DNA from: a virus
Strand: one strand, 5' to 3'
Length of the DNA stretch: 64,000 nucleotides
Virus record (IMG/VR): IMGVR_UViG_3300014202_000807
Positions 24,216-58,207 of the stretch are shown here, in pieces. The notes beneath the pieces are model-generated. The model searched no databases and was not told the origin of the DNA. It saw only the letters and a program-made list of their open reading frames with translations. The position numbers were made by a program, and so were the translations under genes. Every line of letters starts with the position of its first letter. Positions within the stretch are counted from its first letter, which is position 1.

Positions 24216-24937
24216 GAGAGATATGCTCAGTAAAAAACTGTGACGGGATTGTTAAAGCCAAAGGTCTGTGCAACAAGCATCACCACAGAATGTCCAGATA
24301 CGGAGACACAGAACTTCGCAGGCACACCATGCCCACTGGTGGTAAATGCACTGTTATTGGATGCGCCGGAGTCGCAAGAGGATCTGGAATGTGTAACAAG
24401 CATTACCGAAGATTTAAAAAATATGGCGATCCCAAAAAAGGACATCAGAAGATGTCGATTAAAGATCGATTAATAAAAAAAATAAAAATAAATATAAATA
24501 CAGGATGTTGGGATTTTACCGGAAGCAAGGATTTAAAAGGATACGGAAAACTATGGGACGGGAATACCATGCGCAGCGCTCACAGGATTTCATTTATAGA
24601 ATACAAAGGATCCATCCCAGATGGATTGTTTGTTCTACATAAGTGCGATAACCCTGGCTGCATTAATCCGGATCATTTGTTTCTTGGCACACATAACGAA
24701 AACATGGAAGACATGAGAAAAAAGGGAAGGTCGTGTACAGAGAAAAGGCTATGTGGGTCAAGGAACTTTAACTCCAAATTGAGTGAAAACGATATACCGA
24801 AAATCAAGAAAAGATTACTAAATGGCGAATCATGTAAAAAAATTGCGGAATCATATTCTGTAGATAGGACAACCATATCTTTTATTAAAAACGGAACAAC
24901 TTGGAAACATTTAAAAGGAGAAAACAATGGGATTTAG
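24212..24937 (+). CDS. Free-standing HNH homing endonuclease
   Basis: Two CxxxxC...GxCNKH repeats; CW..G....GYG, AHR, VLHKCDNPGCINPDHLFLGTHNEN; C-terminal HTH. Confidence 0.9.
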   Translation: MREICSVKNCDGIVKAKGLCNKHHHRMSRYGDTELRRHTMPTGGKCTVIGCAGVARGSGMCNKHYRRFKKYGDPKKGHQKMSIKDRLIKKIKININTGCWDFTGSKDLKGYGKLWDGNTMRSAHRISFIEYKGSIPDGLFVLHKCDNPGCINPDHLFLGTHNENMEDMRKKGRSCTEKRLCGSRNFNSKLSENDIPKIKKRLLNGESCKKIAESYSVDRTTISFIKNGTTWKHLKGENNGI

Positions 24938-39670: not shown

Positions 39671-39994
39671 TTATTCATAGAATCGGATTATTCCACCCTT
39701 AATGATTGTGCCCTTGTGCGGTTGTCCGTTTCCGTCAATCCACGACAGAGATAATTCATAATTGCCTGGCACAGTAACTTTGTTTGGCTTGATGTAGAGC
39801 ATCAGAGCATTTTGAGACTCTATCTGTATCTCCGCCGCGCTCATGGCGAAAGAAGCGGTAATGTTGCTGTCAAGCGTATTCTTGAGCGTCAGCGTTATTT
39901 CCTGAATGTCACTCGCATCATAATCAAGAGAATTGAATATTTTGATGGCTACTTTATGGGCTACGCCAACATACGCCCTTCCTGATATGCTCAT
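39671..39994 (-). CDS. Small Ig/BppU-like protein
   Basis: PGNYELSLSW.D.NG pattern. Confidence 0.5.
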   Translation of the reverse strand: MSISGRAYVGVAHKVAIKIFNSLDYDASDIQEITLTLKNTLDSNITASFAMSAAEIQIESQNALMLYIKPNKVTVPGNYELSLSWIDGNGQPHKGTIIKGGIIRFYE

Positions 39995-41763
39995 AATCGT
40001 ATAACTATCGGCCCGTCAAAAGTTTTAACCTTGATTGTGAAATCGAGTGGAACATAAACGAATCCACCGGACACAAAAATCACCAACGACTTGTCCGCCT
40101 CTTTTGCCTGCCTGATTAAATCTACTTTTCTGCTTGAAATGGATAAAGCAGAATCGTTTTCTATCGATTTAATCAGGGTTGACAGGGAAATGACTTGCAC
40201 CTGCCTTGCGCTATCAGACTCAAATGCCTGAACTATCTCAGCAACACTGATCGAGCCAATGATAGATGCTGAATCAATGCTTCCGGCAGGCTGTATTCCG
40301 AGTGCGCCGATGCGAACAAGGTGAACTGCGCCTTCAGTCTCACCGGCCTGCGTGATTGAATCAATTTTCAGCGCCGAAATCGCATTTGTCGTATTAGATT
40401 CATTGCCGGGAATAATTACTATCGTTTCCGGCGATGTAATGAATCCAGACGCATCACTTTCGATGGCGCTCAGAATCTCTTTTGATTTGGCAGAATGCAG
40501 ATCGATGGACAGGCAAGATTCCGACCCGGGCGAAATTTCCTGAACCTTTGTTGATGACAGAAAGCCGGATGCGCTTATTTCGATAGCCTGCGCTATGGCC
40601 ATTAACTGCAATCCATCAACCTGGATAGCTGAATCAGATTCTACGGCTGATGATATTTGCGCGTAACTCACCGGATCGACCGGAAGCGATGCGCTTAATT
40701 CAGATGATTCTGATATTGAAAGAATCGACAGAGAATCAATTATTTTGGATGAATCAATTTCTATTGATGCATTTATAACGCCATGCTTTGCGCCATCAAG
40801 AGCTGGCGCATAATCATTCTCAATAGCCGCAATTACCGACCTCAATGAATCGCCAAACAAGGCTGATGACTGACCAACCTCAGCGGTCTGGTCAATTGAG
40901 TCAACCTTGATTGATGACAGGATATTCGCACCATCGACCTCATTACCCGGAAGCATCAGCGTTACATCTGGGGTCGTAATCGCTACCGAATAATCAATCT
41001 CAGTAGAAACGAAGACCTGATTTAATTTCTGCGCAAACAACTGAGCAGAATCATTTGCTTCGGTTGCGATATTAATCAGACCAGAACTATGACCAAAAAC
41101 CTGATTACCCGAGTCGGTTTCCAGCGAACACTGAATGTCATCTGTTTTTATCGACAGCACCGACATCGAGTAATCATTTTCAATCGGCGGAGCAATGACC
41201 AGCATGGACTGACGAAAAACCAGCAGAGACGAATCTGACTCAATTGAAACATCAATAACAGACACCGAATCGCTTGATACGGCCATTGATGAATCGTTTT
41301 CTGCGGCATTCGATAGCTGAGATACTTTGTCTGCTAAAATATTGATAGCTGAATCGTTTTCTGACGAAATCAGGATGGGTGATGATGATGCGCGGTCAAT
41401 ATTTAGCGAATGGTTAGACTCGTTCGCCGACAATATGGCATTAGCTGGTAGCGACTCGGTATTTAATGATGCGTCTGACTCGGCAGCAAAGCCAATCTCA
41501 GTGGGAGCGAATACCTGATGCCAAGTATTAACAACCGGGCCGCCCAATCCAAGGCGGGTGATTTGAACAATGTTGTATGGTGGAAATATCGGCGGCTCTT
41601 CTTCGTCCTGAGCGCCCCAGAAATTAACAACCGGGCCGCCCAATCCAAGGCGGGTGATTTGAGTAAGGTTTGATGGTGGAGACGTTACCGGATCATCACC
41701 GCCGCCAGTAATTTCCCAATGATTGACTACAGGCCCACCAAGCCCAAGCTTGGTTATCTGCAT
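39991..41763 (-). CDS. Repeat-rich fibre-like protein
   Basis: QIT(K/R)LGLGGPVVN x3, then about 20-aa A.E.D.A repeats. Confidence 0.65.
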   Translation of the reverse strand: MQITKLGLGGPVVNHWEITGGGDDPVTSPPSNLTQITRLGLGGPVVNFWGAQDEEEPPIFPPYNIVQITRLGLGGPVVNTWHQVFAPTEIGFAAESDASLNTESLPANAILSANESNHSLNIDRASSSPILISSENDSAINILADKVSQLSNAAENDSSMAVSSDSVSVIDVSIESDSSLLVFRQSMLVIAPPIENDYSMSVLSIKTDDIQCSLETDSGNQVFGHSSGLINIATEANDSAQLFAQKLNQVFVSTEIDYSVAITTPDVTLMLPGNEVDGANILSSIKVDSIDQTAEVGQSSALFGDSLRSVIAAIENDYAPALDGAKHGVINASIEIDSSKIIDSLSILSISESSELSASLPVDPVSYAQISSAVESDSAIQVDGLQLMAIAQAIEISASGFLSSTKVQEISPGSESCLSIDLHSAKSKEILSAIESDASGFITSPETIVIIPGNESNTTNAISALKIDSITQAGETEGAVHLVRIGALGIQPAGSIDSASIIGSISVAEIVQAFESDSARQVQVISLSTLIKSIENDSALSISSRKVDLIRQAKEADKSLVIFVSGGFVYVPLDFTIKVKTFDGPIVIRL

Positions 41764-41778
41764 TGATTTCTACCGTTC

Positions 41779-42627
41779 CTATGTCAGCACGGCCACGGCA
41801 TCAGCGCCAACCGCCGCCGCAACTTGGGTTATCGTAGCAACACCAGTGGATGCATTGTAAGACTGTATCAATGCGCGCTGGTCTTTCAGCGCAGCCGGGG
41901 AACTGAACACTAGTGCAGCATTTTTGTAAATCTGGTCACTGGCATTGTTTGGTGATGCGCCATCGACTGTGGCAAGTATTGCCGTGGTTGTCGTGCCGCC
42001 AGCACCGAATGTTACCGGAACAGCCCTCTTCGCGTGATTCTTTAAATTCACTGCGGCAGAAGTGTCATTATCTATCGCCTGCAATGTTACCGGGACACGC
42101 CCACTGACCAACCCGGCAACGGTTCTTGTGCCAATATCAATAACCGCATCATTCACATCTTTAAGCATCCCATCCGGATCTTCAATCAAAGACCTAACCA
42201 GGGTTGCTGAATACTCATCTATCCTAACCTCGCCAGCGCCAGATACATTTAACTGGTCAAAATTAAGTGGAATCTGGTTATCAATGGCGGCTATATCGGC
42301 TGATAGTGAAGCGCCACCGGGTGCCCCGATACGGCTGAAGCTATCCCCGGATTGCGGGAATCCAGGGTAAATATTGAGCGCCGTCGGGACTGCCCCGGTG
42401 CCCTCGAATGAAAATAAAATATGATCGTAGTTCGTCTCTGATTGGGCTGGCGCATACGTATGATCACCGCCGCCCTTATGCGTGCATATTCCGCTACCAA
42501 CCGACCCAATTGTTCTGGAACCATTATTTCCCGTGACATAAACAGTAACAGCGCCGGTAAACGCCGAACCATCAGCCGTTGAAATCATCTTAACGCCAAC
42601 AACCTGACCAGCTACATTCTTTTTCAT
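41779..42627 (-). CDS. Virion structural protein
   Basis: MKKNVAGQ N-terminus; Thr/Ala-rich C-terminus. Confidence 0.6.
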   Translation of the reverse strand: MKKNVAGQVVGVKMISTADGSAFTGAVTVYVTGNNGSRTIGSVGSGICTHKGGGDHTYAPAQSETNYDHILFSFEGTGAVPTALNIYPGFPQSGDSFSRIGAPGGASLSADIAAIDNQIPLNFDQLNVSGAGEVRIDEYSATLVRSLIEDPDGMLKDVNDAVIDIGTRTVAGLVSGRVPVTLQAIDNDTSAAVNLKNHAKRAVPVTFGAGGTTTTAILATVDGASPNNASDQIYKNAALVFSSPAALKDQRALIQSYNASTGVATITQVAAAVGADAVAVLT

Positions 42628-43670
42628 CCCACGATTACCCTATTATTTGAATTAACAATCCATGCTGGCAAGAAACCACCACCGCCGCCCTCATCAACGA
42701 ACTCAAACGCGCCGATATCCCACGCAGCGCCCTGCGGTCTTGATACGCCAATAATATCTTCCTCCGTAGCAACGAATTCAGCCCTGTCGTACGAGCCATA
42801 ATTTGTTGCCAGATCAGCCCCGGCATTTACCAAAGCGCTTTCTGCATGCAGCGATAAATCATTCGTGGCGTAATTCGTGAAATCGCCAGATAAGATATTT
42901 GCAATTGCTCCTGCGCCCGGAACATCCGTTGTAACTGCTGCGTCCGTGGCATTATTTGAACTGTTTGCGGTGCTAAAGTGGTCTGCAAGAGGCGTTGCAT
43001 ACTTGTTTGTTCCGCCAACAACCACCGTATTCTTACAAGTTATTCTTCCCGATCCGCTTGTTCCTGACTTCTTAATTCCGTCAGTACAGTTCTTGAATGT
43101 TGTATTAAAAATATCGAATGGATACCAATTCGGCGTAATTATTCCCTCAGCCGAGTTGTATGCGATTGAATCCATAATTGCAGTGTTTGCTCCCCCGCCA
43201 GACATCCTGAACGCCACGCCAGCAGACTTTGCAATACAATTCTTGAGCAGGATTCTGCCGGTTCCGGCCCGATTACAGAAAAATCCCCAGCCACTCGCGT
43301 GAGTGTTTTCTACATCAAGTCCAACGATGTAGATATTACCGGTATCGCCAATCGTCACAATGCCATCGAACCCGAGACTTTTGCGCAGATACAACCCGGA
43401 CTGCGGGGTTCCGTCTCCCCTAGAACCCTCAGCGACTTCGATCAATACGAAATCACTCGCGCCCCATCCGGTTATCGCAAAACTGTCCACCATTTCCCCG
43501 GAGCCAGACGCAATGACGTGATGCCAATTTGCGCCGCCCATATTCGTGGCTTCCGCTGCCTGCCATTCAGAAAATGTTGCGTAAGCTCTATCCGAGCCAG
43601 ACGTGGCATTTGTCGTGCCATTGCCGCCAGGCGTAGAGTCTTTGTTGATGTATCTAAGTATTTCGGGCAT
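42624..43670 (-). CDS. Beta-helix-like virion protein
   Basis: Asn/Gly-rich repeats; DIIG.SRPQGAAWDIGAFE C-terminal motif. Confidence 0.65.
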   Translation of the reverse strand: MPEILRYINKDSTPGGNGTTNATSGSDRAYATFSEWQAAEATNMGGANWHHVIASGSGEMVDSFAITGWGASDFVLIEVAEGSRGDGTPQSGLYLRKSLGFDGIVTIGDTGNIYIVGLDVENTHASGWGFFCNRAGTGRILLKNCIAKSAGVAFRMSGGGANTAIMDSIAYNSAEGIITPNWYPFDIFNTTFKNCTDGIKKSGTSGSGRITCKNTVVVGGTNKYATPLADHFSTANSSNNATDAAVTTDVPGAGAIANILSGDFTNYATNDLSLHAESALVNAGADLATNYGSYDRAEFVATEEDIIGVSRPQGAAWDIGAFEFVDEGGGGGFLPAWIVNSNNRVIVG

Positions 43671-44136: not shown

Positions 44137-47100
44137 TTAGGCAACAATTCTTACGCTGTATTTCTCGGCATTATCGCCGTACTCTTTGATCAGAGCATCA
44201 TAAACAGTACGCTTGATAACCCACGTGTTTATTGGCGCATTGGGCTTGTTTTTTGCAGTTTCAACGTCATAATGCTTTGGCCCTGCCTTACCTATCCATG
44301 CCGCCTTTTCTCCAATTCCTTCAGCGAATTCACGGACACTGACAATCTTTGTAAAGCCATACTCGGATTGCATTGCCACCCAATCATCGGAAGACTCCAG
44401 CGACACAGATGAATTCACGTTTTCGTCTGCACCATCAGGCTTTGGTATGGCTTTTATTGCATCGCCAATGGCTTTCCTGAACGAGTAAGGAAGGTATTCG
44501 GTTGATTGATCACCAACCCCGTCATAGTCAATCCATTCTGTGGCGTTCCTGACATAAGCAAGGGCATTGCTGATAATTTCCTGCTCAGCTCCGCCAGTCA
44601 GTGACGCAGAAAAGGAATTAAAATCGACCTCTTTTTCAATTGCGGCAGAAGTCCAAGAGTTGCCGCCAAGATCAGAAAAAGTGAGTTTCATTTTGTGTGC
44701 CTTGGCATACTCAATCAGGTTTTTTCTTTGATCGTAGTAAGATGTCTTCTCTCGCACATCAAGACTGCTTGAAACCACAAACTTTGAACGATCTATGGAT
44801 TTAATAACCTCTTTTTGAGACTCAACAATCTTGCGCATAACCGGCGTAGTCGGCTCTTCACCGATGACTGTCGGGAAATATGGCTGAGGAAGCAGGTAAC
44901 TGTAGATAGAATACTCCGCCAGCATTTCAACCTTGCGCCTTTGCGCCACCTCCGGAACGATCTCGCTGAATTTGTTATCCACAACACCGGAATTCGCTAT
45001 GTCATCCTCGATCTTTGCGGCATCAATCAGACATTGTTCATATTCAGCAGTGCCAGGGTATATCAATTCACTCTTTTTCAGGAATTCGACCATGCTTGCG
45101 GACAGAATGCTGTTACTGCCCGGATTGAAAGCAATAGCTTTTCTTCCGTTATTGTAGGAAACCCCTAGATGACCCTCCTGAAATCTGGCGAATGTACCAT
45201 CAACAATCGGCTTTCCGTCAAGAACCGCCCCCTTGCCATCGGAAATCAGTTCAACTATTTTTTGCGGGTAACTTCCAGACTCTTTTGATTGACGAATAAA
45301 GTTCTGCGTTGATTCCGATATCATGGATTTGGCCATATCAACTTCCACCTGCCATTCATTCCATGCTGGGGAATTTTCCTTCACGCCGATACTGAATGCC
45401 GGGTATTTCTTGCCGCGTAGAATTTCTTCTACATCGCTCTCCTTTCTTGATCTGTTTGAACTGTTTATTTCAGCAAACATTTCGTCAATGGAATATGCTT
45501 CATGCCGCAATTCAATTGTTGCCGAACGGGAAACATGCTCTCTGATACCAGCAATCCTTGCATTTATCTCTGCAAGCAAAGCGGTATTCTTCAAAACGGC
45601 GGACTGACTGGCGATAGGGCTATTGATTCTTTCATTCAACATCAATGCCTGATTCTTGAGCTTCCACATGCCCATTAACTTTGACACCACCATATTCGCA
45701 GGATCTTCATTTTCTCTTAGGAATTTATTCTGTTTGCGGATCGTATCAATATTGATCATCTGCTTATCACGATTTGTTGCTGCGCGTGATTCTGCTTCTT
45801 TGGCCGCTATCGTTTCCTGCAATCTGGTCATCGCATCAGCATCGCCAACGGTATCAATAAGCGCTTCCATCTGCTCTTTTGAAAGTCCGCCTGTGACGGC
45901 AACACTATCGCCACCATCCTGACCCAGAACCTGCCCTATCCAGTCGGCCTTTTTATTCACCATCGAGCGTTTAGTAGTATCGAAAGTGCCGTCCGCATCG
46001 TAGTAATAGATGCTTACCCGTTGCGTTTTGTTGCCCTGCCTGACCCCACGCCCGTTACGTTGCTCAAGGCTGTCCGGCGTCCACCCAATAGTAAGGTGAT
46101 GGATTGCCTGCGTACCTTTTTGCAGGTTAATCCCAACCTCCGCCTTTTCATTGGCTATAACAGTGCGGTACTTGTTTCCCTCGCCATTTGCATTGAATCC
46201 GTCCTGAACATCCAGGATCTCATCCGGCGAATTGTTTTTTTTGCCGGTGATGATTGCAATAGCTCCAGAAGGAACACCGGCTCGCTTGGTCAGTAGGCGC
46301 TTTATTTTGTTGTGCAGTGGAAGTATGTCGCAGAATATGATCTGCTTTACGATTGACGATACCTGTCCGTTTTCATCTATCCCGCGTGGCGTGACCTGTT
46401 CGTTCTGGAAATTTTCCAGCATCGCGGCAAGCTTTGGCGGAACGGACACATCAAGATCAAGACCGGCTTTTTCGGCCATGTCCTCGAATTTTGTCTGAGT
46501 ATCAGGATCAATGGTATCAATGACAATCCTTGAGTCCTGATTTATCCTTGCTTGAACATGGATTTTCAATAACTCAATTGCATCACCGCCAGAATCCTTG
46601 ACTATCTTCTTGCCGACAATTGCATCACCTGAAGTCATCGGGCCGGGCCGCTGACGTTCTTCCGTGAATTTCTTGTTATTGAACTGATCAACCACGGACT
46701 TGGCGATATCTGCCTGCGGGGATATAAAATTGTAGAATGTCGCCCTATTATCAAGCTCAGGATCGGCAATCAACATCGTCATTTTGTTGATCAGGTTGAA
46801 CGGGTGCCCTATCAGGTCAATAGGTTCGCCGAAATGATCAGATACCGCCTCAAATGCTTCCGGGTCGCCCCTATTTGGCATCTTGTTGCTTATATCGTCA
46901 ATAGCGAAGCGAAAAGCCGATTTATAAAGACGAAGGCGATCAACAATATCGTTTGTCAAGGCCACGTGTGATTGCTTTTCTTCCCGGTTCGGAACAACAA
47001 TCTGCTCGCCAACATCTTCAGCAGTTTTGATCGTGGCCACATCACCAATGGCCTTGCGAAGAATGCCAAGGTTATTCAACCCAACAAATACATCGGTTGT

Positions 47101-50100
47101 ACGCGCAACGCCATCAATACTCACATCATCCTGATTTTCTTTCTGTACAAAGATGTTCATGAAATCGTCAGCGCCCTTTACTCCAAGACACATATCGTTA
47201 ACTCGGTCATGGCCAGCGGATAGCGATAGCATTGAGTAAATCTCTAGCGGACTATTTGTTATTGGCGTGGCTGTCAGCATGAGCACGCCGTCCTTTAGTG
47301 GCGATTTGCCGCGTATGTACCATGCTTTTGCCTGGGCGTCTATGCCTCGTTTAGATACCGAAGAAAGAGACAGGAATTTGGCGCTCTTGAAATCAATTGT
47401 CTCGGATGAGTTTTTAAAACAATTGTGTACTAGGATTCCTTCTGCGAAGAAATTGTGATTATCTTTGACTGTAATATCGTAGACATAACCGTCTGAACAC
47501 ACCCCTCCAAATCTTCCATCACCTGTTTGTTCGAGAACCTCAACACTTTCCACCCCAACGATTCCAGAAAGTTGTCTTTCTTCGCATCCATAGCCTTTAC
47601 TTTCCTGCTTAGATGACTCATTCCATCCACCTCTATCGCTATCATCAAATTCTGATTTGCCAAATCCAGCTTGTAGTGAGTAGGTATCCCGTTCCCTTTG
47701 GGAACTCTCGTTTTTACAATGAATTCCATCGACCAGTTTAACGCTTGCGCCAACATAGCTTGCGGAACTGTCGCACCCTTTCCGTTGCCTCCCCTGTTCT
47801 TGATCTTTACCCCTTTCTGAACGCCACTCTTCAATCGTTTTAATCTGTTCTTCTCTACAGCCTCGGGAGTTTGCAGCCAATTGTGTTGCATTAAAGCCTC
47901 TCGGTGCTTGGCCTTTTTCGATTCGCTTCTCAATGACATTTTCATGGACTCCGAATTCTTGTGCCTCCATTTCGTGGAGCAAGACCTCCCGCAAAAAAAT
48001 TGACTTGCCTTCCCGGTTACATATTTCCAATTCTGCACGTGATTCAGCTCGAACTCCGCTCCGCATTCCACGCAATTCTTGTAGATTGGAACTTTCTTTA
48101 TCTTGGAAGCATAGCTGCACTTGCTTGAGCAATAAATTTTGCCCCCCTTTTTTATGCTCTTTTGATGGTGCCTCGCTGCCGTGAATTCTTGTTTGCATTG
48201 GTCGCACGTCACTACCGGACGCGACTTTTCTGAACATTTCCACATCCTCTTCGACGAACAAGAGGTGCTGCAAAACACATCCACTCCCGGATTTCTGGCC
48301 AACTTCCTTGTTTGATAATAACTCGGGACGAATTTTATTCCGCAATTGCTGCAATTCATTTCCATCTGCTGTTTTTGAATAATTGAAATACACATTATAC
48401 TCATTATTCAAAAACTCTGCTTTTATATAGCCTACATTGGGGACAAAAAACGGATGATCGTGTGTTGAAACAATGCTTTGTCCATTTGATAGGTTAACCC
48501 TTACCAATTTCGACGGCCTTCTGCGCATCACATCTGTAACTGTCTTATACTCTATCTCTCCACTACGATGGTTAACCGATCTTACCTTGTCCCCAATTTT
48601 TAGATTTTCTATAGGAATTCCATCAACCAGAGTCCCGGCAGGAAAACAATGCCCTTCATCAATGACAATGCTATCCACGCCCATATCCTCAAGATACGGC
48701 GCGCTACCGGTCTTTGATGACAATATTGCGAGCAAGCCTGATTGTTTTCCTTTTGCCCTTTCATCAGCAGCCTTATCTTCTTTTTCTGAGAAACTACTAT
48801 CCACGCTCCTCAGATAAGACTCGTAATCAGCAATTGTTCCATCCCGCAAGCGGATGCGCTCAAAAGCCTCCATCGTCATGAAAATTTTGCTGTGGCGGTT
48901 TTCCATCACGGAGGTTAAATCAGCATCAAAATTAGAAGACTTTACGGTCGCGTCTCCATTCTTGTTTTCACGCAAACCAATAAAAAGAGTTCCATCCATG
49001 CTTGCGTATGCGCGTGATGCTTCTTTACGCCAGTTCGATAATACGGAGTTTGGTACAACAAAGAATGTTTTGGTCTTGACACCGATGCTTTGCACGTACT
49101 GAACTGCTGCGAGCGACTGAAACGTCTTCCCTAGTCCAACCCCGTGCCCATTTATGCCGCCGAATTCACGACTCATGCGACGCACAAACGCATTCTGGTA
49201 TCCGTGCAACTTGATAGCATCACCCATGCCAGGAATAACCAACCCGGCATCGTCATCTACTTGCCTGAATCTAAGCTTATTCGGATCTGATGCCATGGCA
49301 TCAAGGCGATCCATAATGACCCTATTTCCGCGAACCCATCCATTGAACTGCTCATTCGCGGTATTGACCATCTTGCGTAGCTCTTTCAGGGCATCGGCGT
49401 TACTCATGCCTAAATTCTTAAGACCACTAAGCGTTATCGTCCCGCTCTTCATGTAATCGCCAATGCGATTTATGAGTTTCTCCTTGACAGTTTTGTCACT
49501 ACCCTTAATGTCAATATCTACCCTCGTTTTGCCGGTTACTTCGTCATAAATTACAGCGGCGGACGGGTGGATAAATCGGCGCATGAATTCGGCCTTTTCT
49601 TCATTCGTCACGTATGGGCTAAAGAGATTGAAGTTAAGCCTTGAAACATCAACCTTATCCACACGGCTTTCGGCATCAAGTTTCTGGCGAAGCAGTTTAT
49701 CGCGCACTTTATCGTCTGTGGCCGAATTAATCTCAGCATCAATGCGTTTCATGAATTCGGCATAATTGCCGACATAATAATCATCCGCCTTTGTTACCGA
49801 ACGTCCATCGGATGAAATGCACCACTCAGGATCTTCAATAGGGCTGAAATCTTCACCATACAACCCCCTGGCATCTTCAAGGGATACCCATATTGATTTG
49901 GTCTTGTAGCGCAACCCCTCAAATCCGGCATCCGCTGAAATTTCAACCGAATTCAACGATTGAGACACATCCCCGCGCCATATAGCCGAAAATCCAGACT
50001 TCTTCTGATAATGAACACCAATCAGATTGAGTCCGTCCTTGATCTTTCCGCCAATAACGGATGGTCTGCTTTTGGCTACCGTGGATACGACTTGCATGCC

Positions 50101-51816
50101 GTCTGATAATGCGGGGTACTCGTCAAGGTAGTTGACGCCCACCTCATCACTAAGCCTCTCATCAAGTATCTGAGCAACCGACAGTCCTACAATAGCGGCA
50201 TTCCAATACTTACCTCTATCAGCAACATCCGGAAGCCTGCCAAGCTCCGCAATTGCGCCTCGCAGCCACCCGGGAATGTCCAGCGATTGAGACATTTTCT
50301 GCATGTACTCAATAAAATTGATGGCATCTTTATATGGAATCTTGTTTTCAAACGCGCTGTATGGTGTTGAAAGCTTTCCGGCCATGGAAAGCATCCCGGC
50401 ATTGCCGCCGGAGTTCTCTATCGCAACCCATACACCATCCTTCATCTGTAGCGTTTGTCCGGCCTGGGTAATGGTGTCGCCGTCACGATAAATAATCGGT
50501 GAGGTTTCTGCTGTATTAAGCAGATCCCAATTGATACGAGAATCAGGGAAGCGCTTTAGCATCCTTCCGATTTCTGACACGCTGGCTGGATTGAATACCC
50601 GATCAACGTCACGAAACTTGTTCGGGTCTTTAGGGATAAATTCGCCCAATATGAAGCGCTTATTTCCCTCTACATCGAAATACTTGCCATCAATGAAGGG
50701 CTGCCACTGAATATTGGATTCAATCAATGTTTGCGGAGATTGTTCGCGTAATTCGGCTATTTTTTCCAGTGTTTCGCGGTTGAATTTACGATAAACAATA
50801 ACGTCGGTCATCGTGTCTGCGCTTGCTGTGCCAAAAACTGAGTTTGGCAGTCGATATGCGCCAAGGAACTCAGCCATGAATGATGATTTGACGCGTAACT
50901 CCTCTTCCTTCCCGCCTTTGCCTGAAACGACCCTTGGCGGAGTAATGAAACACGCAAGGCCGTTAGGCTTCAACTTCTCAAGCGAACGCAGGATAAAATA
51001 GTTTTGCAGCGGCTCGTTCTGGTATTTATTGTCGTGCAACTGATTGCCGCCACGATCCGCCACGCCACCGAACGGAACATTGGTTATGATTGCGTCGTAT
51101 TCTTCGTCCGGAGTATTTGCGGCCACCTTCTCGAACGGAGAAATAATTACGTTGTGCCCCGGCCCGCCGTTAACCAATTCATTAATGCGGCCAGAAGTCT
51201 CATTCAGCTCTACAGCATCAATTACAGCATCCAGTGGCGCTGTTGCCCCGAAAATACCAACCCCTGCGCTTGGATCACGGACTTTTCCGCCACTGAACCC
51301 GAGTTCTCGCATCAGATCCCACATGCCTTCGGCGATTGGTTTCGGCGTGTAATATTCGTATGCACTGCCCTTTTTGCCGTCAGCACCGATCAATGCGCCA
51401 CCGGTTCCGGAATACTTGGCAAGGATTGCTTTCTGCTCTGGCGTCAGGCTTGATCCATCAATTTCACCGCTATCAATCTTGCCAAGCAAATCAAGCGCGG
51501 CTTTGTTGTCCTTCTTGCGCTGGACGGTCTTTCTGTTTGGGTCGAACTCGTAGAATTGCGCGGTCTGTTTGCGCTGGGCAGATTCTTCAGACAATACATC
51601 TCCATCGCCCGGCTGCTGGTCGTCCGCCTGCTTCTTGCCAGTCACACCAAGCCTTATCAATAAGGCATTAACCTGGTTGGCTGCCTTTATCTTCTGGATT
51701 GGGCTTGATGCATTAAGCAACTCTGTGTTTGCTTTTGACAGTTGCGCCGTCAGGCGAATGCGTTCAAGCGGACTTAGATTGGCATCATCAAATATTGCAG
51801 ATAGCATTTTCGTCAT
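44137..51816 (-). CDS. darB: DarB-like DNA methyltransferase/SNF2 helicase, intein-containing
   Basis: EYYTP, DPSAGVGIF, NVPF; VGLGKT, IDEGH|CFKN, LTATPITNS, GINLQ, EQRNGRGVRQGN. Confidence 0.88.
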   Translation of the reverse strand: MTKMLSAIFDDANLSPLERIRLTAQLSKANTELLNASSPIQKIKAANQVNALLIRLGVTGKKQADDQQPGDGDVLSEESAQRKQTAQFYEFDPNRKTVQRKKDNKAALDLLGKIDSGEIDGSSLTPEQKAILAKYSGTGGALIGADGKKGSAYEYYTPKPIAEGMWDLMRELGFSGGKVRDPSAGVGIFGATAPLDAVIDAVELNETSGRINELVNGGPGHNVIISPFEKVAANTPDEEYDAIITNVPFGGVADRGGNQLHDNKYQNEPLQNYFILRSLEKLKPNGLACFITPPRVVSGKGGKEEELRVKSSFMAEFLGAYRLPNSVFGTASADTMTDVIVYRKFNRETLEKIAELREQSPQTLIESNIQWQPFIDGKYFDVEGNKRFILGEFIPKDPNKFRDVDRVFNPASVSEIGRMLKRFPDSRINWDLLNTAETSPIIYRDGDTITQAGQTLQMKDGVWVAIENSGGNAGMLSMAGKLSTPYSAFENKIPYKDAINFIEYMQKMSQSLDIPGWLRGAIAELGRLPDVADRGKYWNAAIVGLSVAQILDERLSDEVGVNYLDEYPALSDGMQVVSTVAKSRPSVIGGKIKDGLNLIGVHYQKKSGFSAIWRGDVSQSLNSVEISADAGFEGLRYKTKSIWVSLEDARGLYGEDFSPIEDPEWCISSDGRSVTKADDYYVGNYAEFMKRIDAEINSATDDKVRDKLLRQKLDAESRVDKVDVSRLNFNLFSPYVTNEEKAEFMRRFIHPSAAVIYDEVTGKTRVDIDIKGSDKTVKEKLINRIGDYMKSGTITLSGLKNLGMSNADALKELRKMVNTANEQFNGWVRGNRVIMDRLDAMASDPNKLRFRQVDDDAGLVIPGMGDAIKLHGYQNAFVRRMSREFGGINGHGVGLGKTFQSLAAVQYVQSIGVKTKTFFVVPNSVLSNWRKEASRAYASMDGTLFIGLRENKNGDATVKSSNFDADLTSVMENRHSKIFMTMEAFERIRLRDGTIADYESYLRSVDSSFSEKEDKAADERAKGKQSGLLAILSSKTGSAPYLEDMGVDSIVIDEGHCFPAGTLVDGIPIENLKIGDKVRSVNHRSGEIEYKTVTDVMRRRPSKLVRVNLSNGQSIVSTHDHPFFVPNVGYIKAEFLNNEYNVYFNYSKTADGNELQQLRNKIRPELLSNKEVGQKSGSGCVLQHLLFVEEDVEMFRKVASGSDVRPMQTRIHGSEAPSKEHKKGGQNLLLKQVQLCFQDKESSNLQELRGMRSGVRAESRAELEICNREGKSIFLREVLLHEMEAQEFGVHENVIEKRIEKGQAPRGFNATQLAANSRGCREEQIKTIEEWRSERGKDQEQGRQRKGCDSSASYVGASVKLVDGIHCKNESSQRERDTYSLQAGFGKSEFDDSDRGGWNESSKQESKGYGCEERQLSGIVGVESVEVLEQTGDGRFGGVCSDGYVYDITVKDNHNFFAEGILVHNCFKNSSETIDFKSAKFLSLSSVSKRGIDAQAKAWYIRGKSPLKDGVLMLTATPITNSPLEIYSMLSLSAGHDRVNDMCLGVKGADDFMNIFVQKENQDDVSIDGVARTTDVFVGLNNLGILRKAIGDVATIKTAEDVGEQIVVPNREEKQSHVALTNDIVDRLRLYKSAFRFAIDDISNKMPNRGDPEAFEAVSDHFGEPIDLIGHPFNLINKMTMLIADPELDNRATFYNFISPQADIAKSVVDQFNNKKFTEERQRPGPMTSGDAIVGKKIVKDSGGDAIELLKIHVQARINQDSRIVIDTIDPDTQTKFEDMAEKAGLDLDVSVPPKLAAMLENFQNEQVTPRGIDENGQVSSIVKQIIFCDILPLHNKIKRLLTKRAGVPSGAIAIITGKKNNSPDEILDVQDGFNANGEGNKYRTVIANEKAEVGINLQKGTQAIHHLTIGWTPDSLEQRNGRGVRQGNKTQRVSIYYYDADGTFDTTKRSMVNKKADWIGQVLGQDGGDSVAVTGGLSKEQMEALIDTVGDADAMTRLQETIAAKEAESRAATNRDKQMINIDTIRKQNKFLRENEDPANMVVSKLMGMWKLKNQALMLNERINSPIASQSAVLKNTALLAEINARIAGIREHVSRSATIELRHEAYSIDEMFAEINSSNRSRKESDVEEILRGKKYPAFSIGVKENSPAWNEWQVEVDMAKSMISESTQNFIRQSKESGSYPQKIVELISDGKGAVLDGKPIVDGTFARFQEGHLGVSYNNGRKAIAFNPGSNSILSASMVEFLKKSELIYPGTAEYEQCLIDAAKIEDDIANSGVVDNKFSEIVPEVAQRRKVEMLAEYSIYSYLLPQPYFPTVIGEEPTTPVMRKIVESQKEVIKSIDRSKFVVSSSLDVREKTSYYDQRKNLIEYAKAHKMKLTFSDLGGNSWTSAAIEKEVDFNSFSASLTGGAEQEIISNALAYVRNATEWIDYDGVGDQSTEYLPYSFRKAIGDAIKAIPKPDGADENVNSSVSLESSDDWVAMQSEYGFTKIVSVREFAEGIGEKAAWIGKAGPKHYDVETAKNKPNAPINTWVIKRTVYDALIKEYGDNAEKYSVRIVA
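47422..48648 (-). mobile_element. Intein (409 aa, precursor residues 1057-1465)
   Basis: Block A CFPAGTLV, block B STHDHPF, block F VYDITV..NHNFFA, block G ILVHN followed by C+1. Confidence 0.95.
47430..48404 (-). CDS. Zn-finger/Vsr(DUF559)-type endonuclease nested in the +1 frame of the intein
   Basis: Three CxxC...C(S/G)xxC repeats; YKLDLA...IAIEVDGMSH...DAKKDNFLESLGWKVLRF. Confidence 0.85.
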   Translation of the reverse strand: MSIMCISIIQKQQMEMNCSNCGIKFVPSYYQTRKLARNPGVDVFCSTSCSSKRMWKCSEKSRPVVTCDQCKQEFTAARHHQKSIKKGGKIYCSSKCSYASKIKKVPIYKNCVECGAEFELNHVQNWKYVTGKASQFFCGRSCSTKWRHKNSESMKMSLRSESKKAKHREALMQHNWLQTPEAVEKNRLKRLKSGVQKGVKIKNRGGNGKGATVPQAMLAQALNWSMEFIVKTRVPKGNGIPTHYKLDLANQNLMIAIEVDGMSHLSRKVKAMDAKKDNFLESLGWKVLRFSNKQVMEDLEGCVQTVMSTILQSKIITISSQKES

Positions 51817-52230: not shown

Positions 52231-55200
52231 TTAAGATAAAAGTTCTTTCGATTTTTTGGTTATGTAGTCCGCGTATGCGTTGGCCGCCTGGATAACCAGA
52301 ACATCACCATCACCGAGTTCTTCAGCAGCCTTTTCTATTTGATCAGGGAATGTTTCGGCGTCCATGTCTGCTGTTCCATCGACAACGGACTGGAGGAATG
52401 ATCTGGATGCGTTTATGCTCCCATCGACACCTTTACTTGAATAAACCAAGATTGGGTTTTCAGGCAACATCGATATAACCGATCTGTCTATACTCTTTCC
52501 TTGTTGAAATGACTGGATTTCACCCCAAGTCATACCGAATATAAGTTCATTATTATCGGTGGTCGTTTGTAGCGACTTATTTCTGTCACCGATATATAAA
52601 TTACCCTTCATCTGGATAGCTAAGTTTTTGTAGTAATCAAAGCTGCTAGTAGGATCATTTTTATCGGCCAACTCAGGCACGGCACCAGACGTTAATATGC
52701 TTCCGTCTCTTTCAATGGCGAACGACATTCCGCGCATATCATTTATGTTTGTTGAACCATCTTCTTGACTTTCTTCTGCGGAATCTCTTTTTTGGATCAA
52801 AATATTTGCATAGTCGTACTCGGATTTTGATACTTCATAGACGCCAAGCATGTACCTTGTCACCTTGCCCGCCTCTTTCACTTTTTTCTCATGCTCGCGC
52901 TGCTGCTGATCAGTAGCTCTAAAAAATGCCGATCCTGACATTGGCTTTATCTTGTCTTCTTCATAAGTGCTTGTGTTTTCGCCACCAGAAACCAAGTCTT
53001 CAACAAACTGCCGTTTGTTTTTCACAACCCCGTTATGCCCGATCATTTTGGATAGCTCCGCTATCGCCTTTCCTTTTTGCATTGGGTTGCCACCAACATC
53101 AGCAAATTCTTTTTCTTTTCTTAACTTCTCATCCGCTGCTGTCATCTCCTCATCGGCTCGCAACGCATCCCTTCTCAATTTATCTTGGTACTGCTTTGAA
53201 TCAAGCTCTATGAATCTTTCCAGATCATCGACCGGTATTATTGGTCCGCCATTCACCTTCCCATTCATAAGAGCGTAATATTTACCATCCTTGAGCGATT
53301 CAATAGTAATTTCGTCACCCTGGCCATCCCTCCATGACCTTCCGATATTGGCATCTTCTGACACACCACCACCCATAATCTCGCCAATAGTCTTCGGTTT
53401 CCAGTTAAAATCCAGCTCAACACCAGAGCCTATCAATTCCTCGATGCTGATATAACCAAGCTCTCCACCATCGCCAAACAGATCAGCCAGCCCAAAAGCC
53501 TGCAACTGCTCATCTTCCATGTCCTTTTCGGTGATGTGCCAATCAGCAGATCCCTTAAAGTAATGCAGGTAAGCTATGGCTTTGTCTCCCATACCATCCT
53601 GCCCGTAGGTTTTGGGCATGGTCTGGATGGTGTTGGCTATCTCAAGCATCTTGTCGATGAAATATTGTTTCTCTTCGCCACGGATGCCCATGCCAACAGC
53701 TGATAATTGGGATTTGCCGATGAATTGTTTTAATAGGGGCATGACCTTATTGACATCTTCTATAGCGGCATTAGGCTTCGCTTCTGGCTCATGGTCTTTT
53801 GGCTTCTCGTCTGAGCGCCTTGATAATTTAAAATCGCTCGCATTCCAATATTGACTACCCTTGTCTTCAAGCTTCAGCATTTGCTTGTTTGAGTCATAAT
53901 CAGTTTTTATGTGATTAATCCTCATTTCGTCCTTGCCATAAAATCCAACATCTTTCACCGCAATGACATAATCACCAATCTGGAATGATGGCGCTTCTTC
54001 CGAAACTCCATCATCTCCAATAACTTCAGGCTCCTCGCCTTCGATGAATAGATTGAAAACTTCCTTGGATTCATCTACACTATCAAATGCAGCAGTAATG
54101 TTGCCTTGCTTCGACAAGTAAGGTCGGTCGCCAGCCAGCCGGGAAGGATTCGATGATCCCCCGGATTCGTAAGTGGCGTCAGAAATTGGGTCAGATTCTT
54201 CTGGCCCATTTCTATTTGCGCTGTCCAAAATAGCGCCTGGCGCATGGACGGTGTGATCCCAATGAAACTTTCCTTTATCATCCTCCTTGATGACGAACCT
54301 AACGGCGACATCCTCACCATCTATTTTCGCCAACGAACGCATGGTGTGATAGGCAGTCACATTTGACTCTGACGGGCTGTACGGTGGCGTTGAATTCAAT
54401 TCCTTTGCGCTGCTAATTAACAACTCAATTGCTGCAACAAGTTTCAGTTTTCTCGTGTCAGCACTCAGGCTTAATGTTTTTTTAACTCCGCTTTTGCGAA
54501 TCTCAACGTCTCCTTTAAGTGCCGGACAAGGAACCCATTTGCCTATCAATTCACTGATCTTCTGTTTTGCTGCAAGCCTTAGCTGTTTTGCTCCTTCAGC
54601 GGTATCCGGAAAGTCTCCAAGTTCCTTACCTGATAAAGTAATGACAGGATCGCCTTGATCTGTTGGGGTTTCTTCCGATTCGCCAGAACCAGAAACAACA
54701 GAAGCAATGGCGGTCTCAACATCATCTGGATGGTTTTCTAAAATACTATCAATGGCCTTATCTGCTCCCATTTTTAGCGTCACAACAGACCTTAAGGAAG
54801 GGCTTGCACCAACTTTTGCCAATTGATCAGCGTCCATATTTTCAAGGATTGTCCGTGCAGCGTCTTCACGCTCTTTAAGTGCCTGCTGTTCTTCGTCAGG
54901 AATTATTAGCCCACCGCCCATTACTCTGCCTTCAGCCTCAATCTTGAGAACTTCAAGCTCATTCTGCGCACTTTTCAACTCACCCTCCAGGGTGACAATC
55001 TCATCCTTAAGATTCTGAATATTCTGCATACGATCAGCCCGTTTCGCATTCGCGCGGGCAAATGCCGCGCTATTCTTTTCGGCCAGCTTCAGGATTCGCC
55101 TTGCCACTTCGCGCACATCAAGATCCCGCCCGCGCTCAGGCGCAACAACGATGGTGATGTCTTTTTTGTTCAGCATCCATTTCCACGAAATGACCTCATC

Positions 55201-56127
55201 CGTAGGCGCTATCTTTTGTGGCGTAACATCTGGATTATGGAAGTATATTGATATTGTCTGCCCGTCCGACAGCTCATATACAACAGCAACATTCACCACG
55301 CCGCTCTGTTTGAACGGATCGGATATCTGCATTGCAATCGGCTTGATTTGACTCGCTGAGCGCTCCATGATGCCCTGCAATATGCTCATCTTGCGTTCAA
55401 GCTTAACGAATGGAGTAACAAGCGCGTCCAGCAGCACACTTCCTTCAGAATCTTCGAGAATTTCACTCATGGAAACGGAATCCATCAGCAAATTATCTTC
55501 ATCCGACTGGCGCATTTCGTACAACACACGGTCAAGGGTGCGCCCATCAATCGGCAGGTTGTTTTCATTCCAGTACACTTTTTTCATTGTTTCGAATCCT
55601 TCTGCGGGTAAGTCTGCTTGTTTGATGGGTCGGCTCATATCACCATTCTTAAGCCACCATTTGAATTGATTTATTGATAATTGAGCGATGCTTGCGAGAC
55701 CTTTCCAGTATCTGTCATAGCTTTGCTTGTAGGCTCGAATAGCCGATTCCTGGTCAGGGAAGGCGAGCATCGACTTGTGTTCATCGAAGCGCCCGTTCAC
55801 GTTCTGGTTGATAACAAAAACATGTTCGGATTGCGGGTAAAACCCCACAAAGCAGTCAACACCATCACCGTCAGCGCCCTTTGTGCCGCCTACATAGCCA
55901 TAGTGCGCCGCCATGCGCGATGTCCAGCGCTTACCGGTTTTCTGGACAATTCCTGTCCGGTATGAACCGCGCGGCTGCTCAATGACTATCTTCAGTCCGT
56001 GATAGTCAAATCTGCCCATTTTGTAATTGCCTGCGTTACATTGATTCTCGGTAGGCTCGGGCATCCGGTTTCTACCGAATGCTCCAGAATGCGCGGCGGA
56101 CTCAATTTCAGGAAGTGATATGGGCAT
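52231..56127 (-). CDS. DarA-like polyvalent internal head protein
   Basis: InPase-like N-domain (GNYKMG, GADGDGVD, DEHK), DarA-like core (LSDGQTISIYFHNPD, KWMLNKKDIT), LPD3-like and DUF2958-like segments; likely ATG at 56127. Confidence 0.8.
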   Translation of the reverse strand: MPISLPEIESAAHSGAFGRNRMPEPTENQCNAGNYKMGRFDYHGLKIVIEQPRGSYRTGIVQKTGKRWTSRMAAHYGYVGGTKGADGDGVDCFVGFYPQSEHVFVINQNVNGRFDEHKSMLAFPDQESAIRAYKQSYDRYWKGLASIAQLSINQFKWWLKNGDMSRPIKQADLPAEGFETMKKVYWNENNLPIDGRTLDRVLYEMRQSDEDNLLMDSVSMSEILEDSEGSVLLDALVTPFVKLERKMSILQGIMERSASQIKPIAMQISDPFKQSGVVNVAVVYELSDGQTISIYFHNPDVTPQKIAPTDEVISWKWMLNKKDITIVVAPERGRDLDVREVARRILKLAEKNSAAFARANAKRADRMQNIQNLKDEIVTLEGELKSAQNELEVLKIEAEGRVMGGGLIIPDEEQQALKEREDAARTILENMDADQLAKVGASPSLRSVVTLKMGADKAIDSILENHPDDVETAIASVVSGSGESEETPTDQGDPVITLSGKELGDFPDTAEGAKQLRLAAKQKISELIGKWVPCPALKGDVEIRKSGVKKTLSLSADTRKLKLVAAIELLISSAKELNSTPPYSPSESNVTAYHTMRSLAKIDGEDVAVRFVIKEDDKGKFHWDHTVHAPGAILDSANRNGPEESDPISDATYESGGSSNPSRLAGDRPYLSKQGNITAAFDSVDESKEVFNLFIEGEEPEVIGDDGVSEEAPSFQIGDYVIAVKDVGFYGKDEMRINHIKTDYDSNKQMLKLEDKGSQYWNASDFKLSRRSDEKPKDHEPEAKPNAAIEDVNKVMPLLKQFIGKSQLSAVGMGIRGEEKQYFIDKMLEIANTIQTMPKTYGQDGMGDKAIAYLHYFKGSADWHITEKDMEDEQLQAFGLADLFGDGGELGYISIEELIGSGVELDFNWKPKTIGEIMGGGVSEDANIGRSWRDGQGDEITIESLKDGKYYALMNGKVNGGPIIPVDDLERFIELDSKQYQDKLRRDALRADEEMTAADEKLRKEKEFADVGGNPMQKGKAIAELSKMIGHNGVVKNKRQFVEDLVSGGENTSTYEEDKIKPMSGSAFFRATDQQQREHEKKVKEAGKVTRYMLGVYEVSKSEYDYANILIQKRDSAEESQEDGSTNINDMRGMSFAIERDGSILTSGAVPELADKNDPTSSFDYYKNLAIQMKGNLYIGDRNKSLQTTTDNNELIFGMTWGEIQSFQQGKSIDRSVISMLPENPILVYSSKGVDGSINASRSFLQSVVDGTADMDAETFPDQIEKAAEELGDGDVLVIQAANAYADYITKKSKELLS

Positions 56128-56243
56128 AAGATTGATCTTGTAAATTCGCAAATTCAGTATCGAATCTTATGCTTTATGGAATGTCTGGATGCTTCGGTTT
56201 TCCGTTGTTCTGCTTGATGAATTGATAAAAGATTTAAAATATG

Positions 56244-56272: not shown

Positions 56273-56346
56273 TACTTACATGATCACTTGATCAATAACG
56301 GTAGCAAGTCCCGATGACTTGCATGGGCAACCAGAAGGAGGATGCC

Positions 56347-56544
56347 ATGAACCAAAACCAAAACCAAAACCAAAACCAAAACCAAAACCAAAACCAAAAC
56401 CAAAACCAAAGCCATGAACAAGGGCGGGCATATGAGCAAGTCCCTGGCGATTATTACCCGGGAGCTTGCAGTTTTTGTGGAGGCACGATCTTTGTGCCCC
56501 ACGGGCACAGTTACGGCGCATGCCACGACTGCGGCTCAATATAA
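56347..56544 (+). CDS. Small (NQ)10 plus Zn-ribbon protein
   Basis: AAGGAGG RBS; CSFC...CHDC. Confidence 0.65.
   Translation: MNQNQNQNQNQNQNQNQNQNQSHEQGRAYEQVPGDYYPGACSFCGGTIFVPHGHSYGACHDCGSI
56350..56409 (+). repeat. Perfect (AACCAA)10 microsatellite
   Basis: Read directly from the sequence. Confidence 0.95.
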
Positions 56545-57721: not shown

Positions 57722-58207
57722 CTAAGCAGCAGCCTTCAGACTTTCTATCTCTTCCCTGACGGCGGCAATAGCCTCTTTCAGAGCATCACGCTTTTCAGTC
57801 AACACCTGCTCCATCTTTGGCGCAGCGGTGCGAATACTTGCTGGTGGCTTGACTCTCGCCATGGCAAGCTTCTTCTGGAACTTTGATCGCCCGGAATCCA
57901 TTGCTTTGACAACTTCGGTGATCGCCGCGATATGGTCATCCTGATTCTTGATCGGAACTAACTTTTTGTTGAGCAAAACCTGATATATGTCTCCGGTCTG
58001 TTTCACGCGCAGAACAACCGTTTGAGAATCGGCAAAGGTCAGCGTCATTTCTCTGTAACTTACTCCCATCGACCGCTTTACCGATGAAGACACATCCTGC
58101 TGAACGATATTCGCGCCAGCGCGGGCAAAGTAACGCGCCACGATCTTGCTTGCCTTGTCGCCTGCGGCCATATCATTGAAGCTGAAAAGCATTTTATTAC
58201 TATCCAT
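57722..58207 (-). CDS. Hdf/DarA N-terminal-like protein
   Basis: KRSMGVSYREMTLTFADSQTV...GDIYQVLLN, followed by a coiled coil. Confidence 0.65.
   Translation of the reverse strand: MDSNKMLFSFNDMAAGDKASKIVARYFARAGANIVQQDVSSSVKRSMGVSYREMTLTFADSQTVVLRVKQTGDIYQVLLNKKLVPIKNQDDHIAAITEVVKAMDSGRSKFQKKLAMARVKPPASIRTAAPKMEQVLTEKRDALKEAIAAVREEIESLKAAA

Follow-up and report, generated by a model that had tools for sequence, protein, structure and literature searches.

A dual-coded intein in a phage DarB helicase with a predicted nuclease gene in its +1 reading frame

The intein and its nested nuclease gene

IMG/VR virus record IMGVR_UViG_3300014202_000807 is a stretch of 64,000 nucleotides (nt), called the window below, with the gene content of a temperate tailed phage (terminase, integrase, repressor, tail, and DarA-like genes). 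On its minus strand, a gene for a DarB-like protein is interrupted by an intein, and the same DNA carries, in the +1 frame of that strand, an open reading frame (ORF) for a predicted nuclease. The host protein has an adenine methylase fused to a SNF2/superfamily 2 (SF2) helicase, homology to P1 DarB (27% identity across 238 amino acids (aa), E 3e-14), and a DarA-like neighbor, as in the family of DarB-like methylase–helicases described previously (PMC5512222). Packaging into the head and protection against type I restriction have been shown for DarB of P1 only, according to the accessible part of that paper. The features considered here are the following, by position in the window; model confidence is given as pLDDT, a predicted local distance difference test score.

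44137..51816, minus strand: darB-like gene, host of the intein (2559 aa, no stop; methyltransferase and SNF2/SF2 helicase)
47422..48648, minus strand: class-1 intein of 409 aa, after DEGH of helicase motif II (Walker B)
48379..48648, minus strand: N-terminal splicing part, residues 1–90 (C1, T62, H65), model pLDDT 96–98
47575..48378, minus strand: stop-free filler, residues 91–358, poorly conserved, predicted disordered, pLDDT mostly <50
47422..47574, minus strand: C-terminal splicing part, residues 359–409 (blocks F and G; ends in His-Asn)
47419..47421, minus strand: TGT, the C-extein's +1 Cys codon, specifying the splicing nucleophile
47430..48404, minus strand: nested +1-frame ORF, 324 aa from its first ATG, for a zinc-finger and Vsr/DUF559 (EDxHD-like) nuclease
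47979..48353, minus strand: three CxxC...CxxxC Cys4 fingers (C18–C49, C67–C96, C111–C142), predicted DNA-binding part
47460..47792, minus strand: nuclease domain, residues 205–315 (Q215, D247, E258-x-D260, H264, D273)
47430..47580, minus strand: about 50 codons conserved in both frames; the last strand and helix of the nuclease (GWKVLRF...VMST) lie over the VESVEVL strands and block F of the intein
48394..48399, minus strand: TATAAT, 34 nt ahead of the ATG at 48359, a candidate –10 box for a promoter inside the intein

Class-1 inteins have a C1 nucleophile, a TxxH in block B, an Asp in block F, a terminal His-Asn, and Cys, Ser, or Thr at +1. The intein in the window carries C1 at 48648, T62 and H65 in block B (STHDH), D391 in block F (VYDITV), H408-N409, and a Cys at +1; it interrupts DarB at DEGH/CFKN, and its removal restores IDEGH/CFKN. 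Pfam profile searches of both frames matched Intein_splicing in the intein frame (E 5e-14) and DUF559 in the +1 frame (E 5e-13). No nuclease family was matched in the Pfam search of the intein frame, whereas a canonical bifunctional intein carries its endonuclease in frame. In a structure model built on 31 relatives, pLDDT is mostly >90 at residues 361–409, both intein ends adopt a Hint fold, and Foldseek returned 25 matches at E <= 0.001, all the listed ones being Hint proteins. An initial annotation of this DNA, made from its letters alone, had described a complete intein at this site, with a middle that is off-frame filler lacking stops and nuclease motifs. Both descriptions hold: the middle is the off-frame reading of the nuclease gene, with no nuclease family match, predicted disorder, and 0 stops. 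The intein is predicted with high confidence to splice itself out of DarB.

The +1 ORF had been read as three zinc fingers followed by a Vsr/DUF559 nuclease, and the DUF559 match, the Cys positions, and the modeled fold all agree with this reading; the number of fingers differs between relatives. Its TAG stop at 47432–47430 lies, as was also noted, 8 nt short of the splice junction. Structure comparison places the nuclease model (residues 205–320) in the Vsr-like fold of EDxHD homing endonucleases, with Z 12.7 and a root-mean-square deviation (rmsd) of 1.1 over 86 aligned residues for 3hrl, Z 10.8 and rmsd 2.4 over 90 for I-Bth0305I (3r3p), and Z 9.6 and rmsd 2.3 over 97 for Vsr (1cw0). Foldseek found nothing at E <= 0.001 for this model, the top match being 3r3p at E 3.6e-3, and sequence searches of the PDB gave weak nuclease matches only (3hrl at E 2.7e-8 and 3r3p at E 0.024 with a profile; 3hrl at E 0.012 with the single domain).

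The residues expected for catalysis are largely in place. D247, D260, H264, and D273 are invariant among 30 aligned proteins; D247, H264, and D273 would supply the metal-binding Asp, the general-base His, and the following Asp, and their spacing (17/9) equals that of D196, H213, and D222 in I-Bth0305I. The first Glu of the EDxHD motif presumably corresponds to Q215 of the window (the position is taken from the structurally aligned range). This position is Gln in 74 and Glu in 7 of the 81 nested members scored, with 6 more left unscored. The nuclease is therefore called EDxHD-like (QDxHD) rather than a member of the EDxHD group. An active nuclease and homing are considered very probable.

Dual coding and the intein family

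Both frames are open across the full 975 nt. When the nuclease gene was shuffled 500 times among synonymous codons, 16.8 +/- 2.8 stops were expected in the intein frame, with a minimum of 9, compared to none observed; the third frame has 30 stops, with 27 expected. No insertion or deletion is listed in the region in the contigs of four sequencing runs from three studies; no single contig spans the whole stretch, and one of the runs is possibly the source of the window. Between the window and one relative (L025), amino acid identity from the fingers to the catalytic part is 60% when the nuclease frame is read and 36% when the intein frame is. Nonsynonymous and synonymous differences (pN and pS) were compared in 22 listed pairs, two of which were set aside as near-identical. 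In the nuclease frame, pN was below pS in all 20 diverged pairs, and omega, the ratio of nonsynonymous to synonymous rates (dN/dS), was 0.06–0.29 where unsaturated; in the host frame, pN exceeded pS in 19 of 20. These patterns indicate that selection acts on the nuclease frame and that the middle of the intein is kept only stop-free.

The end of the nuclease gene is different. Mean top-residue frequency is 0.70 at nuclease residues 276–310 and 0.65 at intein residues 359–409, compared to 0.22 in the filler, and these doubly conserved last 50 codons are confidently modeled in both proteins. The initial claim that even the C-terminal splicing blocks are dual-coding is thus borne out by some 50 codons conserved in both frames.

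Relatives were sought in viral contigs and in genome assemblies. A scan of viral contigs with the single nuclease sequence gave no further locus, and a scan with the intein frame matched mostly unrelated inteins through blocks F and G. The viral relatives were searched with the nuclease alignment alone, and the best 80 of 304 confirmed viral stretches were examined. In 75 of these 80, no stop interrupts the host frame (one base behind) along the nuclease, and the offset is always +1; automatic classification put 70 of the 75 inside a single intein ORF, three showed both junctions by inspection, and two are cut by the contig end. The other five comprise three near-copies of a split intein (24–25 stops), one locus with a single stop, and one free-standing gene. 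Clustering of the viral loci and the window at 90% identity gave 60 clusters, 57 of them with zero host-frame stops. Codons ending in T before AA, AG, or GA, which amount to a host-frame stop, are 0/2726 in the 57 nested genes versus 108/295 in five free or split genes. The genome search covered 31 of 64 parts, and the best 80 of 423 matches were examined. Among the 37 above 100 bits, 34 lack a host-frame stop (31 with both intein ends), two are free-standing, and one is split; the 43 at or below 73 bits are ordinary DUF559 genes that lack a neighboring intein block. Separately, a match (H42) was seen under an SNF2 gene on a Rhodovastum plasmid.

The records of the family range over many phyla and include the isolates Ktedonobacter racemifer and Longilinea arvoryzae. 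Where seen, the junctions are almost always DE/C, DE/S, DExH/C, or DExH/S, that is, the Walker B motif, mostly of SF2 helicases, and the hosts include ResIII/XPB-like, SNF2, DinG-like, and DarB helicases. The nuclease stop lies 8–65 nt upstream of the junction in 50 of the 51 clusters with both junctions mapped and beyond the junction in one. The nested ORF was confirmed in the phages phi673, CP-T1, 1.088.O, 1.194.O, and K391. By sequence, a large family of dual-coded inteins occupies many hosts, DarB among them; placing the novelty in the DarB host, as first suggested, was therefore too narrow.

Some loci depart from this pattern. Outside the SF2 helicases, the host is a clamp-loader-like ATPase in L051 (by Pfam) and, by junction likeness, in L158; the L101 host drew no Pfam call and its junction is terminase-like, and L043 has an off-pattern host, a D12 adenine methylase with the junction HPVNE/C. 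In a separate case (L007:4386–6911 and L009), a terminase large-subunit intein with a stop-free middle contains a nested +1 ORF (5092–6006) for zinc fingers and an HNH-like nuclease that ends over block F, the same layout with a different nuclease.

The nuclease occurs in three other states as well. Two UvrD-like (superfamily 1) helicases (P0082 and P0083) have an in-frame form, with an intein at VDE/C that carries the nuclease without fingers. In the split forms (L057, L058, L097, and L152), the N-terminal intein part (IntN) stops, the nuclease follows in +1, and the C-terminal part (IntC) restarts inside the 3′ end of the nuclease. Free-standing relatives are L050, L149, L161, and an annotated gene on a Deinococcus plasmid (L214:2696–3310). 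In a nuclease tree of 100 rows made by a quick method, with five duplicates or fragments excluded (L138, L140, L154, L160, and L164) and 45 of 97 inner branches open, the split, in-frame, and free forms are placed among the nested ones, and the order of events is not readable.

Collectively, stop avoidance, frame-specific selection, the indel-free run contigs, and the same layout in other phages led to the rejection of a group of chance ORFs, a decayed in-frame nuclease, and an indel artefact. In homologues the ORF is kept under purifying selection, not disrupted or unconstrained.

Expression of the nuclease, mobility, and rival explanations

The nuclease frame has ATGs at 48404, 48395, 48365, and 48359. 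The initial annotation listed all but the second, missed the TATAAT at 48399–48394, and was right that a strong ribosome-binding site is lacking. Translation likely starts at 48365 or 48359 (Met14 or Met16). Across the family, 47 of 57 clusters place an ATG no more than 15 codons ahead of the first CxxC (0.081 ATGs per codon versus 0.035 upstream, p 2e-7). A Shine-Dalgarno match accompanies 16 of these 47, a –10-like hexamer 6–9 nt before the ATG (leaderless geometry) 13, both signals one, and neither signal 17, so that 30 of 47 first-finger ATGs have a start signal, compared to 28 of 148 control ATGs. The –10-like hexamers, present in 14 of 47, exceed all 300 shuffles (mean 3.4, maximum 9). 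The TATAAT of the window, which has no –35 match and also codes for Tyr-Asn in the intein frame, is matched by TACAAT at the equivalent place in L025 and L026.

An internal start and frameshifting had both been proposed, and internal initiation is the better fit and the probable route. The other route would be a programmed +1 ribosomal frameshift or transcriptional slippage after IntN, yielding an N-extein–IntN–nuclease fusion that is perhaps freed by N-terminal cleavage. It would suit the constant +1 offset with entry always just past IntN, the missing clear ribosome-binding site and the A5 run shortly upstream of the ATG at 48365 in the window, and the in-frame IntN–nuclease–IntC fusions of the two UvrD helicases, which indicate that the nuclease domain tolerates fusion. 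However, ATG is 2.3-fold enriched right before the first finger, with the excess of start signals given above; a +1-frame stop at 48410–48408 leaves only a short stretch for the shift; no common slippery sequence was seen by eye in the upstream regions; and free-standing and split relatives share the same N-terminus. Frameshifting is thus unlikely.

The distribution of the intein suggests that the element is very likely mobile. In darB, all 27 further alleles found with a C-extein are empty, DExH running straight into the C-extein, and the two closest alleles (74–80% identity) are among them. The three intein-bearing DarBs, one of which has a long branch, are rejected as one clade (approximately unbiased test, p 0.0016 and 0.016), and their nucleases form a group with support of 99. 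In three of the runs, contigs internal to the intein show 1/623, 14/862, and 5/376 differences to the window (0.2–1.6%), compared to 55/697, 67/716, and 47/556 (7.9–9.4%) for darB-only contigs of the same runs. In a contig bridging the N-terminal junction, 20 of 23 differences are listed, one in the intein and 19 in the extein. Similarly, the Vibrio phages 1.088.O and 1.194.O share 95.8% identity in the intein and 76–78% in the exteins.

The +1 residue appears to travel with the intein. The +1 Cys is absent from 26 of the 27 empty darB alleles; the sole exception (L111) reads DEGH/CFKN, with the same residues as the window. In phi673 gp43 (L212, with intein) and phi674 gp40 (L218, empty), from phages of one laboratory host, Corynebacterium glutamicum ATCC 13032, the flanks are 99.7% and 98.5% identical, and the nearest difference is the +1 codon itself, TGT (Cys) in the intein allele and GTG (Val) in the empty one. 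The phi673 paper reports the intein in gp43 and none in gp40, in a passage that is silent on a nested gene (PMC6132909). The phi673/phi674 difference, together with the darB pattern, suggests that homing carries the Cys codon along, and it seems likely that the element imports its own nucleophile. In Vibrio phage K459 (L217:2501–4582), an unrelated mini-intein of 150 aa occupies the DE/C site that is filled by the dual-coded intein in close relatives. With about 60% DNA identity and no clean alignment, it was rejected as a nuclease-less version of the full Vibrio intein and hence does not define the ends of the cassette.

The nuclease might instead be a passenger, a once-free gene that landed in a mini-intein and spreads by itself or decays without moving the intein. 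The free-standing relatives (including the Deinococcus plasmid gene), the K459 mini-intein at the same site, and the Gln in place of the first acidic residue would be compatible with such an origin. Intein and nuclease nevertheless move as one near-identical block into diverged exteins, and the family-wide purifying selection and invariant catalytic residues argue further against a passenger, which makes this explanation improbable. An assembly artefact, in which compensating indels shifted an in-frame nuclease out of frame, might be suspected because the window is probably a metagenomic assembly and one gene-call record (P0068) is a helicase–intein–nuclease fusion resembling frameshifted read-through. 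Against it stand zero indels in the four runs, two frames that stay open through all 975 nt and are each conserved in the final 50 codons, and the same layout in the K. racemifer and L. arvoryzae isolates; the occurrence of this layout in cultured phi673, CP-T1, and Nahant Vibrio phages already refutes an artefact.

Conservation, frame-specific selection, and a homing-like distribution support the original proposal of a splicing intein with a separately encoded +1 nuclease. We consider the locus to be probably a two-gene selfish element on one stretch of DNA, an intein in the darB frame and a separate zinc-finger/Vsr-type nuclease that would drive its homing. The DarB precursor would be translated through about 270 residues of disordered filler, which would leave with the intein. 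The nuclease would have a start of its own inside the intein, right behind the N-terminal splicing part and probably served by an internal promoter, and would thus not be tied to DarB synthesis. It may cut or nick empty alleles near the conserved Walker B codons (GATGAR), and repair would then copy the intein plus the +1 Cys codon, opening alleles that lack the nucleophile to invasion.

Several observations weigh against parts of this interpretation. First, many of the dN/dS pairs are near saturation and members are shared between pairs. Second, Gln rather than Glu stands at the first EDxHD position in the window and most nested members. Third, at the last ATG the highest of 300 shuffles equals the Shine-Dalgarno count of 16 (shuffle mean 9.0); the –10 hexamers sit in intein-coding DNA, a constraint that the shuffle ignores. 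In the window, as in the 17 of 47 clusters with neither signal, a Shine-Dalgarno match and a leaderless-type –10 box are both missing, and a sigma-70 scan of its coding strand found no full promoter. Fourth, the patchiness on the DarB tree is also compatible with one gain and several losses. Finally, the run contigs are short, mostly unlinked, and of low depth, with only three records bridging a junction, and the runs were chosen for words shared with the region.

A broader reading is put forward tentatively. The dual-coded state, instead of being an unusual accident or a transient, may be the stable, dominant form of an old, still mobile intein family that targets Walker B motifs, with its own promoter and start inside the intein-coding DNA, +1 Cys import that opens sites lacking a nucleophile, and about 50 codons folded in both frames, and may be the source of the split, in-frame, and free forms. 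If so, all stages of the path proposed for the gain of nucleases by inteins and for their splitting would be on view in a single family, and with the phi673/phi674 pair homing by an out-of-frame nuclease could be tested directly for the first time.

Elsewhere in the window, a large polyvalent DarA-like protein (InPase, DarA_N, LPD3, and DUF2958) is encoded at 52231–56151 on the minus strand and a second DarA_N gene lies at 57722–58207. A short tandem repeat with a 6-base unit at about 56340–56400 (approximate), a Phe-Gly run in the ORF listing, is upstream of the darA-like gene. Three long genes with little or no PHROG match occupy 39991–43670 (minus strand), between darB and the baseplate genes. 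A free-standing HNH endonuclease is encoded at 24212–24937 (plus strand), between RecE/RecT genes and an SbcC-like gene.

Comparison with known systems

Out-of-frame intein nucleases as a general layout are already in print (2025–26 preprints). The literature below is cited for the accessible part of each source. Gosselin, Arsenault, and Gogarten described noncanonical inteins of actinobacteriophages with antisense LAGLIDADG, antisense Vsr-like, and frame-3 endonuclease VII nucleases (10.1101/2025.01.02.630785), so the actinobacteriophage precedent mentioned in the initial annotation is real; that preprint also cites earlier reports from 1998–2002. Those inteins resemble the one in the window in being contiguous, with a stop-free filler middle and a separate overlapping nuclease ORF, and the set includes a Vsr-like nuclease matched to 3R3P and evidence of continued transfer (10.1101/2025.01.02.630785). 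Compared to them, the nuclease in the window is in the +1 frame of the same strand, is Vsr-like with Cys4 fingers, and sits in a helicase Walker B motif, a combination that fits none of the types described in the accessible part, and its overlap with the conserved C-terminal splicing part measures about 50 codons. An in-frame nuclease–intein end state, the form of P0082 and P0083, was predicted by Gosselin et al. (10.1101/2025.01.02.630785).

In another study, Phillips, DeSimone, and Gogarten reported a cyanobacterial dnaX intein with an out-of-frame overlapping LAGLIDADG ORF (10.64898/2026.09.14.751524). It shares with the present family the separate overlapping frames, a patchy distribution, and omega below 1 in the nuclease frame and often above 1 in the host frame, and has a Shine-Dalgarno-like motif of its own (10.64898/2026.09.14.751524). 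While the dnaX case concerns a LAGLIDADG nuclease in one cellular host gene, the nuclease here is of the Vsr/DUF559 type and occurs in many phage or prophage hosts across many phyla.

As described by Dassa et al. (2009, PMC2677866), fractured genes have a Vsr-like or GIY-YIG nuclease gene with split-intein halves on either side. As in the window, a Vsr-like gene lies between IntN and IntC with its 3′ end over IntC (PMC2677866), but there the host frame is broken and splicing occurs in trans, while in the window the host frame is unbroken for 975 nt with 0 stops. A host gene split in two ORFs is seen in L057 and L152, not in the window. The model of Dassa et al. (Figure 5, PMC2677866) has split, in-frame, and free states and, as presented there, no contiguous dual-coded state.

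I-Bth0305I, the prototype EDxHD homing endonuclease, comes from a group I intron residing in the recA gene of a phage (Taylor et al. 2011, PMC3239194; PDB 3R3P). Both nucleases have a C-terminal Vsr fold, the same D–H–D spacing, and an N-terminal DNA-binding part (predicted here); that of the window differs in being nested in an intein rather than intron-encoded, in the Gln at the first acidic position, and in its N-terminal Cys4 fingers. ShiLan domains hide an HNH nuclease in phage methylases (Arsenault et al. 2025, PMC11855218). They likewise place a zinc-finger nuclease out of frame in a stop-free in-frame insert, with leaderless initiation proposed (PMC11855218), but have no splicing domain, an HNH nuclease, the third frame, and a methylase host (PMC11855218). 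A same-strand +1 Vsr-like type, a Walker B helicase family, and a DarB host were not found in literature searches, with preprint supplements, subscription journals, and InBase outside their reach; the supplements could list such cases.

The family has several implications. First, annotation overlooks these nucleases: phi673, CP-T1, and the Nahant Vibrio phages list only a helicase over them, and all 40 phage records matched at E <= 1e-8 list only helicase-type, coil-containing, or hypothetical coding sequences over the match. Such inteins would be scored as ones with decayed nucleases, though selection points to an active nuclease. Second, long overlapping genes are available here as a large natural collection, with one stretch held only to the absence of stops and another constrained in both frames. 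Third, since P1 DarB is a virion protein, a separate start would allow the timing of the nuclease to be set apart from that of its host protein. Fourth, the nested, split, in-frame, and free forms of one nuclease bear on how inteins gain nucleases and on the origin of split inteins. Compared to the systems above, what is new here is the nuclease type and frame, the target motif, the breadth of the family, the overlap with the splicing domain, a +1 Cys that is apparently imported, and the co-occurrence of nested, split, in-frame, and free forms.

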